A stretch of DNA of 64,000 nucleotides from a virus (IMGVR_UViG_3300044998_000260:21309-85308), one strand, 5' to 3'. Numbered from the stretch's first letter, positions 21,028 through 28,810 are shown. Program-made: numbers and translations. Notes: generated by a model from the sequence alone, not told the origin.

Positions 21028-21035
21028 ATGTTAAG

Positions 21036-21378
21036 TGGACCTGAGGGGGAATCGAACCCCCTGTCCAAAGCATTATACTAAGTGACTCTTCTCCGTGCGC
21101 AGTTCGTTGTCTCATTTTTGATTCAATGTATCACACCGAACAAATCTACATTGTCTCTATCCGATTGTCAATCTCGATCTTATCGGAGTCTGTCAAGATT
21201 TACCCCTTATCGTGAGTTTTTCGTTATCAGGGGATTAACGAAAAACTTCTCGGCTATATTAAGCAGCGAGAGCAAGCGCAGGATTTGCACTTAAAAGTTT
21301 GATTCCATTTAACGAGATCGAATCAGTCTCGGCACGCTTCATTCACACTTCTAACCTCTGTCGAAACCTGGCAGGCCC
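21036..21378 (-). ncRNA. ssrA: tmRNA, tag ANPALALAA*
   Basis: GGGCCTG/CAGGTCC acceptor with G3-U, GGTTTCGAC, T-arm GGGGGTTCGATTCCCCC, tag ORF 21288-21259. Confidence 0.93.
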
Positions 21379-25898: not shown

Positions 25899-25971
25899 TG
25901 CCCATAGCGGGACTTGAACCCGCATCAACCGTTTTAGAGACGGTTGCTCTATGCCTTTGAGCTATATGGAC
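25899..25971 (-). tRNA. amber suppressor tRNA (CTA)
   Basis: ACCGT-CT CTA AA-ACGGT; complete 73-nt cloverleaf. Confidence 0.9.
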
Positions 25972-26046
25972 TGGAGGTACGAGGTGGATTTCAACCACCG
26001 CCTTCAGTTTTGCAAGCTGATGTCTTGAGCACTTGACTATCGTACC
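25972..26046 (-). tRNA. tRNA-Cys(GCA), CCA encoded
   Basis: cloverleaf. Confidence 0.8.
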
Positions 26047-26136: not shown

Positions 26137-26210
26137 TGGCGGGAGGAGGATTTGAACCTCCGACCTCGACGTTATGAGCGTCGCGAGCTACCAGGCTGCT
26201 CTATCCCGCA
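26137..26210 (-). tRNA. initiator-like tRNA-fMet(CAT)
   Basis: 1-72 mismatch, GAGCAGCCTGGTAGCTCG D-arm. Confidence 0.85.
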
Positions 26211-26211
26211 G

Positions 26212-26284
26212 TTGCTCTTCCAGGGATCGAACCTGGACTTTCCTGTTTCAGAGACAGGCGTGTTGCCTATTACACCAAAGAGCA
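26212..26284 (-). tRNA. tRNA-Gln(CTG)
   Basis: cloverleaf. Confidence 0.9.
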
Positions 26285-26293
26285 ATAAAAATG

Positions 26294-26488
26294 AATGTTC
26301 CGTAGCCGCAGTTCTGTTCTATCCTATCATTTATCTAAGCACCAACCCGCAGTTCTCTAGGGTCAAGCAATCTGCTGTTTGGCTTGCTGCGTTGCTGTGG
26401 TCTACGCGATGGTATTACCATCTTCCACATCCCCATTGCAGCTGCGAACTTCCTCCAGGTGTCACCACCCAGCGATAGGTCGAACATT
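26294..26488 (-). ncRNA. rnpB: minimal RNase P RNA (195 nt)
   Basis: GAGGAAGTTCGCAG..AGATAAATG..AACAGAACTGCGGCT; P1-P4, P6, P15 pair. Confidence 0.88.
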
Positions 26489-26509
26489 CATTAATATGTT
26501 TTACTATAG

Positions 26510-26582
26510 TCGGGATGGAGGGACTCGAACCCCCGATTTCTTGCTCCCAAAGCAAGTGCCATAGCCACTAGGCGACATCCCG
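26510..26582 (-). tRNA. tRNA-Pro(TGG)
   Basis: cloverleaf. Confidence 0.92.
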
Positions 26583-26588
26583 ATAAAA

Positions 26589-26919
26589 AGAAACGGACTG
26601 AGATTACATCCGTTTATGATTACCCGTTTGTTGGATTATTCCAACCCGTGTCCCCACGGGCCGTTCCCAACTTATCCACACCCTCATGGGCGTCGGCAAT
26701 CAGAGCGACCTTTTTTAAGGTGTGGCATTTCACCTGTCGTCTGGCGCTACTCAACCTTTTCTCTACCACCGAGCTTGCGGCCCGTTCAACTCCGCTAAGA
26801 GTTTATGTGCGAGTCTGGATTGATGAATCTCCGTCTTGGGAACATCGACTCAGCCACATTCGTTACCGTGTGGCATTACGCTCTTTTTCGCGTTCAGACC
26901 GAGGAAGTCTTTCCATTTT
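26589..26919 (-). ncRNA. short GOLLD-like structured RNA
   Basis: no ORF, many hairpins; GTTGAGTAG, GTGGATAAG, AATAATCC, GTAATCTCAG resemble GOLLD 3' domain (recalled). Confidence 0.5.
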
Positions 26920-26994
26920 TGGGTTCAATAGTGGGATTCGCACCCACAACCGATTCTTTAGCATAGAATTGCTCAACTATTGAGCTATATTGAA
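26920..26994 (-). tRNA. atypical tRNA-like gene, anticodon GCT, short variable region, C73, CCA encoded
   Basis: TTCAATA/TATTGAA acceptor; T-loop TGCGAAT. Confidence 0.6.
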
Positions 26995-26996
26995 AC

Positions 26997-27480
26997 CTTG
27001 AGCGAAGTGCTTCCTCAGTAGTTCCCGTATCTTTTGGATACAGAAATGCTACACTCCGCAGTTGTGTTCGGCTTGCGACCTACTTCACCATGTTTTGCGA
27101 CCACGAGCGGCACTTCTAACAGTCGCCCCGCCCAGACCACTCACATTGCAATTCAGCCCTTGACTGCAAAATCTCAAACTGAATTACTATCTGTTACCGA
27201 TACTTCCTCGGCCGTTGGTATGAAAGGAGCCCGGCACCACCCGTCAGACTTCGGTAACCCGCTTTCCTTTCGGGGCGTCGGCTACCGTTCTTTCCCTTTC
27301 ACGACCTTCGGACCTATCACCGCTTTGGGAGCGATGCCACCACAGTCGCTGTGGTGTCGGCCAGACTTGCTTCGGCGAGCGAGACTTTCATCTCACGGGG
27401 ATTACAAGGATACACCCCTTTATATGTCTTACGACATACTATTCTCACGGACCCGAAGCGGCCCGTTACTTCAGTTTTCA
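26997..27480 (-). ncRNA. ROOL-like large structured RNA
   Basis: TGAATTGCAAT, GTAGCATT, CCAAAAG..GGGAAC..ACTTCGC resemble ROOL 3' region (recalled); many hairpins. Confidence 0.5.
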
Positions 27481-28418: not shown

Positions 28419-28724
28419 TGCCTGTGGAGGGAGTCGAACCCACACTTCGGAGATTTTCTTACCACTATAACTTTCGTTACATTTCTACCTGATTATGATA
28501 GAAATTTTTGTGGTCTGGACTATACCTTTACCTTCAACTTTACTTGTTAAGGTACGCGCCGTCTAGTCTCTACACTTTCAATGAGAAAAAAAACAGTCTC
28601 AAAGCTTAGCTCGGGATTGGCAGTTAAGCTTTCCCCGAATTTGACGCGATTCACCAATCATATTTCTATGATAGTGCTCAAATTTGTTTAAGTCTCCTGC
28701 CTCTGCCAATTGGGCTACACAGGC
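28419..28724 (-). tRNA. tRNA-Leu(TAA) split by group I intron
   Basis: exons 28724-28690 and 28457-28419; CTT^AAAA. Confidence 0.9.
28458..28689 (-). mobile_element. group I intron (tRNA-Leu UAA type), 232 nt, no ORF
   Basis: P AATTCGGGGAA, Q AATCCCGAGC, R GTAGAGACTAGACGG, S AAGGTATAGTCC, terminal G. Confidence 0.9.
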
Positions 28725-28810
28725 ATATAATTATTTCACGATCAAGTTTTACTTCAATTGTCAATCAGCATTGTCTTACAAGTATAACTAGTGACAATTT
28801 ATTTGTCAAG

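Follow-up and report, generated by a model that had tools for sequence, protein, structure and literature searches.

Reduced ribonuclease P (RNase P) RNAs include the yeast mitochondrial RPM1-type RNAs of organelles and, among engineered molecules, the Min 1 RNA reportedly made by Waugh, Green and Pace in 1989 and those reportedly made by Green et al. in 1996, while the archaeal type T RNA is said to have been found active in vitro by Lai et al. in 2010. Type T is a natural RNase P RNA with most of the specificity domain (S-domain) gone, it is the sole RNase P RNA found in the genomes concerned, and it was overlooked by existing models until a dedicated model was built (Chan, Brown & Lowe 2012, PMC3579882). 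The catalytic domain (C-domain) of the E. coli RNA alone (Eco CP RPR) cleaves substrates in the presence of the C5 protein as well as in its absence, with the P6-type interaction being required and P18 bringing no gain once the S-domain is removed (Mao et al. 2018, PMC5839562). The RNase P RNAs of Mycoplasma fermentans and of Candidate Phyla Radiation (CPR) bacteria lack P12-P14 and P18, and in megaphage genomes Rfam found only transfer RNAs (tRNAs) and a transfer-messenger RNA (tmRNA) (Lui et al. 2021, PMC8172020), while phages appear only as a source of substrates in a 2024 review of RNase P. Here, we analyzed a stretch of viral DNA of 64,000 nucleotides (nt), IMGVR_UViG_3300044998_000260:21309-85308, which is referred to as the window, and describe a small RNA encoded on its minus strand within an array of tRNA genes. 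The RNA was confirmed to be a real RNase P RNA homologue, and we consider it with a probability of roughly 60% to be a phage-encoded, trans-acting RNase P ribozyme that would be reduced almost to the catalytic domain.

The RNA was matched from end to end by RF00010, the Rfam model of the bacterial type A RNA (26287-26491 on the minus strand, model positions 1-367, global, 55.4 bits). The match was obtained in a permissive scan of 26200-26600, with an E-value of 1.9e-16 for the 401-base search and ~3e-14 when scaled to the whole window, and chance is excluded. Searching with RNase P models had been set beforehand as the check on the original prediction, a reading of the window that had proposed a phage RNase P RNA with the S-domain largely deleted, and this significant match bears the proposal out, as the type-A-like catalytic domain is complete and the T-loop-reading part, P9-P14, is absent. 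Within the RNase P clan, it is the type A model and not that of type T that scores the window best. Three stretches align to RF00010 without gaps, the first covering GAGGAA..UC and the 5′ strand of P4, the second running from GCAGCAA through P15 to CGGGU, and the third from UAGAUAAAUG through AACAGAAC to GGCUAC. The ~145 model columns of P7-P14, in turn, are matched by only ~39 nt, and no nucleotide matches the 24 columns of P18, which is absent as had been predicted. The core features of clan CL00002 were all observed, namely P4 with its bulged U, conserved region I (CR-I, GAGGAA...), CR-V (ACAGAA...GGCU.A), CR-IV or J18/2 (AGAURAAUG) and the adenosines of J5/15. From type A, the RNA has the P15-P16-P17 arm with the GGU of L15 and the P6 pseudoknot between J5/7 and L17, while P8-P14 with CR-II/CR-III (the T-loop-binding module), a P18 whose GNRA loop docks on P8, and a score reaching the gathering score of 100 bits are missing. 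Standard annotation misses the RNA because 55.4 bits falls under this cut-off; a Rfam scan of the window at gathering thresholds reported no RNase P, and a search of the window's whole contig with RF00010 returned nothing at E ≤ 0.01. A covariance model of the family described below, R1, gave a single match in the window (26288-26499 on the minus strand, 116 bits, E 4e-30), but as the window sequence is among the 31 sequences on which R1 was trained, the independent evidence is the Rfam match. All the pairs proposed for the window helices were found to be standard in a scripted check. Thermodynamic folding by itself was uninformative: its minimum free energy (MFE) was not unusual (z = -0.99), and the MFE structure misses P4, P5 and P6.

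Relatives of the RNA were harvested by three pattern scans built from conserved blocks, which yielded some 20 IMG/VR contigs, in many cases of 100-500 kb, and at least 120 metagenome contigs. With 185,579 prokaryote species represented by a single genome each, only eight matches were obtained, five of which could be confirmed; all five lie on contigs of metagenome-assembled genomes. More than 110 distinct relatives with ~50-60% identity were thus collected from viral and metagenome contigs, of which 116 were used for the context counts. Being tied to three motifs, the harvest partly forces the invariance of J18/2, ACAGAA and GGCUAM and misses more divergent members. R1 was built from 31 short members and matched 89 + 48 loci, with spans ranging from 196 to 363 nt and a median of 221 nt, including ~18 nt of flank. 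The segment inside the P7-like helix varies between 18 and 163 nt from member to member, without conservation of its loop, and some of the larger members harbor a P18-like insertion. Rfam models scored the relatives at 28-63 bits or did not detect them.

In an alignment of 82 distinct sequences, standard pairs occupied 96.6% of the cells, vs 70% after shuffling and 28-42% with slid partners, changes on both sides were observed in 26 of the 30 pairs, and the covariation score was 0.58 vs 0.16. All eight helix segments of R1 covary, which involves P4, P5, the P7-like helix, its hairpin, P15, P16 and P17, and double compensatory changes were found in six of the eight P4 pairs. The three main pairs of P5 are 98.7% paired and its innermost fourth pair 89.6%. 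For P2 and P6, a test on the longest helix barely parted true partners from swapped ones, which share sequence, and column-wise counts were used instead: the P6 columns are 91.5% paired with CG, UA, AU and GC types (13-50% when slid), and the P2 columns 74% paired with many pair types (29-46% when slid), while 75% was counted for P3. The support for P2 and P3 is weaker than for the other helices, as they lie in a part of the alignment aligned by sequence only. Among bases outside the search patterns, GAGGAAG, the bulged U and GCAA are 85-95% or more conserved, and the GGU at least 85%. The family signature is GAGGAAGYUC...GGCUAM, of which the cellular counterpart is GAGGAAAGUCC...GGCUUA, and the window RNA carries this signature together with the capped P7 stub, P5, P6, P15, P16 and P17 in the family register, and the strand of the neighbouring tRNAs. 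These data show a large virus-restricted family under strong structural selection. They also dispose of the idea of a decaying, functionless fragment of a captured host rnpB, for which the score under the Rfam gathering threshold and the ordinary folding energy could be quoted; a family of this many distinct and divergent sequences with compensatory changes in every helix, a single copy per genome and a conserved signature of its own that is absent from cellular genomes makes such a relic extremely improbable, and the covariation refutes it.

The elements of the window RNA are listed in Table 1. The comparison shows that P1-P6, P15-P17, the bulged U, the A248 equivalent, the GGU of L15, J18/2 and J2/4 are all retained, whereas P18 and all of the S-domain except a capped P7-like stub are lost. 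The P2 helix, the P3 hairpin with its GUGA loop, for which 7 base pairs (bp) were counted, P15 with the GGU motif, and the UGUGG/CCACA helix with one hairpin in place of the S-domain helices were found as originally proposed, with all their pairs standard and, for the last two helices, with covariation in the family. The RNA itself stood as well, at ~203 nt with the full P1 rather than the 195 nt first given; the seven pairs proposed for P1 (AAUGUUC/GAACAUU) are real and make up only the inner part of an 11-bp helix. P4 with a bulged U and compensatory changes was likewise upheld, but the bulge had to be moved to the second U, since the first position is paired, as C-G, in members with GCUC. 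The helix GCAAU/AUUGC that had been assigned to P6 was rejected because it takes two bases (G and C) of P5 and conflicts with the covariation that supports P5; in the family register, P5 is followed within 1-2 bases by P6, whose partner is the 3′ part of the P17 loop. P3 ends with the G that opens the conserved GAGGAAG. The A at 26385 in J5/15 aligns with E. coli A248, which contacts the substrate nucleotide at -1. The window RNA lies near the minimal extreme of the family and is its most divergent member in the P17 region, with a P17 that is shorter than those of the other members and is handled by R1 as an insertion.

Table 1. Elements of the window RNase P RNA, its adjoining tRNA genes and the nearest upstream promoter match (window coordinates).
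Feature	Position	Strand	Basis and remarks
Whole minimal RNase P RNA, P1 5′ strand to P1 3′ strand, ~203 nt	26290..26492	-	RF00010, R1, pair check
P1, 11 bp	26482-26492 with 26290-26300	-	pair check
P2, CCUAUCG/UGAUAGG, 7 bp	26473-26479 with 26323-26329	-	pair check; family column counts
P3 hairpin, 7 bp, GUGA (GNRA) loop at 26462-26465	26455..26472	-	pair check
J3/4 (AGGA) and P4 5′ strand	26442..26454	-	ungapped RF00010 alignment; family covariation
P4, 8 bp	26442-26450 with 26304-26311	-	3′ strand CUGCGGCU; pair check, covariation
P4 bulged U	26447	-	aligns with E. coli U69
P5, CUGC/GCAG	26438-26441 with 26387-26390	-	pair check, covariation
P6 pseudoknot, UGGGG/CCCUA (P17 loop)	26431-26435 with 26358-26362	-	family register, pair check
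S-domain vestige: P7-like stub helix, one hairpin and a 7-nt strand	26396..26429	-	both helices covary in family
P7-like stub helix, UGUGG/CCACA	26425-26429 with 26396-26400	-	covariation, pair check
Hairpin in stub, 6 bp	26408-26422	-	covariation; 7-nt strand 26401-26407 beside it
J5/15, CAA	26384..26386	-	A at 26385 is the equivalent of E. coli A248
P15-P16-P17 arm	26341..26383	-	covariation, pair check
P15, GCCA/UGGU	26380-26383 with 26341-26344	-	covariation, pair check
L15 GGU	26345-26347	-	conserved in family
P16, GCAG/CUGC	26372-26375 with 26349-26352	-	covariation, pair check
P17	26365-26367 with 26355-26357	-	covariation, pair check
J15/2 (J18/2 equivalent, UUAGAUAAAU), P2 3′ strand and J2/4 (AUAGAACAGAA); P18 absent	26312..26340	-	RF00010 alignment
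tRNA-Pro(UGG), upstream neighbour	26510..26582	-	discriminator base 17 nt ahead of P1
tRNA-Gln(CUG), downstream neighbour	26212..26284	-	+1 base 5 nt past P1 end
Closest strong upstream match to a sigma-70-like promoter (TTGACA, 17 nt, TATACT)	28781..28809	-	consensus match only

Compared with the type A RNAs of E. coli (M1 RNA) and T. maritima, the phage RNA shares P1-P5, the P4 pseudoknot with its bulged U, the P6 pseudoknot, the P15-P16-P17 arm with the GGU of L15, and the joining sequences GCAA (J5/15), UAGAURAAUG (J18/2) and ACAGAA (J2/4). It differs in its length of ~200 nt vs 350-400 nt, in having nothing of P8/P9-P14 beyond one hairpin and neither CR-II/CR-III nor P18, and in being encoded by a virus inside tRNA arrays. 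The comparison with archaeal type T that had been drawn at the outset is a fair analogy, as both RNAs are ~200 nt in length, keep the catalytic domain, have lost most of the specificity domain and are missed by standard models. Nevertheless, the core of type T is of the archaeal kind, its P2 has 3 bp, its P15 is shortened and its P5 and P15 are linked by 2 nt (PMC3579882), features that were not observed in the phage RNA, with its P2 of 7 bp and its linker of 3 nt (CAA). The partners of type T are the archaeal Pop5, Rpp30 and Rpp29 proteins, and it is the only RNase P RNA of its genomes, whereas the phage RNA is an extra, viral copy in a genome with a tmRNA and bacterial-type tRNAs; the resemblance is one of convergent reduction, not of membership. 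The elements kept and lost match those of Eco CP RPR, where the architecture was reached by design, but in contrast to engineered constructs, which are lab-made and of reduced efficiency, the phage RNA belongs to a natural, selected gene family with a capped P7 stub. As in the reduced bacterial and organellar RNAs, peripheral and S-domain helices have been lost and detection with standard models is hard; those RNAs, however, are sole enzymes, and the bacterial ones mostly retain P10/P11 and the T-loop-binding core, which the phage RNA does not. The family went unseen in the megaphage survey, in which Rfam detected only tRNAs and a tmRNA (PMC8172020). Searches of the full-text literature, subscription-only papers lying outside their reach, brought up no description of an RNase P RNA encoded by a phage or other virus, and the family forms a distinct, virus-restricted and S-domain-less class of RNase P RNA that is apparently undescribed.

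The contig to which the window belongs is a 105-kb IMG/VR viral contig with a CheckV completeness of ~48%, and its source is a T4-like tailed phage, as inferred from the baseplate wedge protein, RIIA and RIIB that it encodes. On the minus strand, ~45 tRNA genes lie between ~21 and 38 kb together with a tmRNA, a GOLLD RNA and a group I intron, and the RNase P RNA fills a 224-nt gap from tRNA-Pro to tRNA-Gln on the same strand as the array. The same setting recurs in the family. Around the 116 distinct members, ARAGORN detected 559 tRNA genes on the strand of the RNA and two on the opposite one, with tRNA genes sharing the RNA's strand at 71 of the 116 loci and no tRNA in the examined stretch at 44; a tRNA abuts the RNA downstream in ~13% of members and upstream in ~12%. 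Two strong sigma-70-like promoter matches lie upstream of the window RNA at ~28.8 and ~29.1 kb (consensus matches only), and the window scan found no minus-strand terminator-like site between them and the RNA, a layout that is compatible with, and would allow, co-transcription of the RNA with the tRNAs. As the +1 base of tRNA-Gln is only 5 nt past P1, cleavage by RNase P at that site would define the 3′ end of the ribozyme itself. This close abutment, which is also seen in the cultured phage DLP6 described below (7 nt) and in the ~13% of members with a flush downstream tRNA, could also speak for an element acting in cis, which would cleave no tRNA except the one joined to its own 3′ end or serve as a folded spacer insulating tRNAs. 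Most members, however, are not flush with a tRNA, 44 loci have none in the examined stretch, and a spacer leaves the conservation of the catalytic core unexplained, which makes action in cis very unlikely.

The search for partner proteins gave negative results throughout. RnpA (PF00825) was not found in the window's contig, at its ~48% completeness, or in five related large phage records, no CCA-adding enzyme (PF01743) was found in the window's contig, and the open reading frames (ORFs) within the tRNA region showed no tRNA-processing domains. No protein gene is consistently adjacent across the family, the best ORF cluster, which is acidic, occurring at 12 of the 116 loci. The RNA itself was present in exactly one copy in each of five large phage records (5/5), two of which are 95% and 100% complete with lengths of 385 and 357 kb. 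Use or titration of host RnpA, as first suggested, would be plausible. The lack of a phage RnpA gene suggests host RnpA as the putative partner, and it could also be read as the sign of a decoy or regulator, in which the protein-binding face (P2-P3, J18/2, J2/4 and P15) is kept while catalysis is dead or feeble, so that host RnpA would be titrated or re-targeted and host RNA processing shifted during infection. The alteration of near-universal P4 pairs beside the active site and the loss of the S-domain, which would reduce activity, are in line with such a role. A decoy would have little need for the bases of substrate binding and catalysis that are conserved (the bulged U, the A248 equivalent and the GGU of L15) or for the conserved P6 pseudoknot, which C-domain catalysis needs, and processing is a better fit than sequestration to the close association with tRNA arrays; we regard the decoy as quite unlikely.

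The trans-acting ribozyme that we favour would be transcribed within the tRNA polycistron, released by the ordinary end-processing of the flanking tRNAs, and paired with host RnpA. It would then act on the mass of phage pre-tRNAs, and probably on the phage pre-tmRNA as well, by removing their 5′ leaders, with recognition limited, for want of an S-domain, to the acceptor stem, positions -1 and 73, and the 3′ end. In the window tRNAs, the discriminator is followed by CU in 28 of 38 and by CC in 3 of 38, and in the relatives C74 follows it in 510 of the 522 parsed tRNAs, the next base being C, A or U. Nearly all these phage tRNA genes therefore encode a C after the discriminator and not the full CCA, and because nearly all encode C74, the GGU of L15 might pair with N73-C74 on primary transcripts. 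The suggestion that the RNA serves atypical T-loop tRNAs of the array did not survive, as 36 of the 38 cleanly parsed window tRNAs have a canonical UUCRANY T-loop, the exceptions being tRNA-Cys at 25972-26046 and a tRNA-like element inside GOLLD.

A further alternative is an enzyme that is independent of protein or dependent on a phage cofactor, acting after host shut-off, in a phage-made compartment, or on RNAs of the array other than tRNAs, for which GOLLD, the tmRNA and tRNA-like RNAs without a normal elbow would be the candidate substrates. The family occurs in the largest known phages (484-735 kb), the window member adjoins GOLLD and lies near a tmRNA, and from established RNase P biochemistry an S-domain-less enzyme needs no elbow of T-loop and D-loop. 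The absence of a conserved neighbouring protein gene (only the acidic cluster noted above comes near), the unphysiological salt that bacterial RNase P RNA needs for activity on its own, and the overwhelmingly canonical tRNAs all count against this alternative, and we consider it unlikely.

Several observations weigh against the trans-acting ribozyme itself. C-domain-only constructs are much less efficient in vitro than the full-length RNA. The P4 of the window RNA has a normal length, with five of its eight pairs changed compensatorily relative to the type A consensus, and two changes are constant in the family, the E. coli pair A67-U359 being replaced by G-C and G68-C358 by U.G or C-G. These two pairs flank the catalytic metal site and are nearly invariant in cellular RNase P, and even with the geometry kept their alteration could weaken or alter catalysis, which is the main structural caution on full activity. 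That host RnpA is used is something we infer from the missing phage gene, and the contig at hand, being ~48% complete, leaves room for a phage cofactor elsewhere in the genome. The host, moreover, already has its own RNase P, which weighs on the selective benefit. No RNA-seq run containing the window sequence was found, the RNA runs sharing only ~5% of words with it; the runs that do contain it are DNA only, from hot-spring and microbial-mat samples.

Members of the family were also detected in deposited phage genomes. A blastn search of the RNA against deposited phages gave only a 38-nt match, which led to Stenotrophomonas phage vB_SmaS-DLP_6 (DLP6), and megablast of the 6 kb around the locus gave a tRNA match only. 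DLP6 is a cultured phage whose known host is Stenotrophomonas maltophilia. Its member is unannotated (KU682439.2, ~105,766-106,021; L165:1297-1552(+); 82.6 bits) and lies inside a 30-tRNA cluster, 7 nt upstream of tRNA-Arg; RNase P is not mentioned in the DLP6 genome paper. Uncultured huge-phage genomes (L166-L169) contributed one unannotated member each with R1 scores of 72-140 bits, namely LR756501.1 (735 kb), LR745206.1 (635 kb), LR756511.1 (595 kb) and LR756508.1 (484 kb).

Among the relatives, L019:771-1073(-), which is the same as L065, and L097:1151-1480(+) look like circularly permuted RNase P RNAs. Their order starts with J18/2, the 3′ strand of P2, J2/4, the 3′ strand of P4 and a short cap at the place of P1, and continues with the 5′ strand of P2, P3, GAGGAAGUUC, the 5′ strand of P4, a larger S-domain with CR-II/III-like motifs, and P15. 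P2 and P4 remain paired, and the two sequences are set apart by compensatory changes in P2. Rfam matched only positions 11-317 of the type B model in them, as would be expected from a shift of the 3′ elements to an upstream place. A second permutation type was observed in L069, L070, L085, L088 and L099 (e.g., L088:1503-1760(+)), running from the 3′ strand of P5 through P15-P17, J18/2, P2′, J2/4 and P4′ to a capped P1 place, and then through P2, P3, J3/4, P4 and P5 to a terminal P7 stub, which in L070 appears to contain a T-arm-like hairpin (GUAGGUUCGAGUCCUAC). Incomplete copies were seen as well. L119:3526-3648(+) is a second, partial R1 match (positions 57-159, 80.6 bits) located 420 nt downstream of a full-length copy and may be a fragment or a split gene. 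In L027:3518-3701(+), the 3′ half alone is recognisable (P5′ to P4′), directly ahead of tRNA-Leu, the 5′ half not being found nearby, and the gene may be split or decayed. Phage tRNA arrays also harbor short RNase P RNAs of another sort, L021:10596-10802(+) and L014:676-884(-), which keep the bacterial GAGGAAAGUCCGG signature. With ~207 nt, L021 still scores 118.5 bits on RF00010, over the cut-off, and seems to have been reduced by a different route, with loss of the P15-P17 arm rather than of the whole S-domain.

The window array holds other RNAs besides. GOLLD lies at 26595-27061 on the minus strand, one tRNA upstream of the RNase P RNA (Rfam 198 bits, cut-off 150), and the tRNA-like element inside it (26920-26994) has an atypical T-loop (UGCGAAU) and an encoded CCA. 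An amber-suppressor-type tRNA with the anticodon CUA was observed at 25899-25971(-), the phage tmRNA with the tag ANPALALAA at 21033-21378(-), and the group I intron between tRNA genes at 28498-28699(-). A protein-coding reading of the region was rejected, as the overlapping ORFs are only short or antisense, with one of 108 codons running antisense through the tRNA genes.

Taken more broadly, large tailed phages might carry their own S-domain-less ribozyme that would be active in infection, either by itself or together with host RnpA, and would mature out of tRNA polycistrons, natural permuted forms included, a proposal for which we judge the chances to be evenly balanced. Few ribozymes are universal, RNase P RNA being among them, and its two-domain design is the textbook picture for bacteria; if the ribozyme reading is true, the RNA would be the first RNase P encoded by a virus, as well as the first natural enzyme of the bacterial type with a C-domain only. 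In more than 100 viral lineages, selection has retained the near-minimal catalytic core that biochemists reached by deletion, which offers a natural test of the purpose of the S-domain and compact ribozyme scaffolds of ~180-210 nt, some of them permuted, for structure work. It also explains why pipelines report only tRNAs and a tmRNA in megaphages. DLP6, being cultured and having a known host, makes this biology directly testable. In addition to tRNAs and a tmRNA, phages with big tRNA arrays would supply the enzyme RNA by which these are matured.
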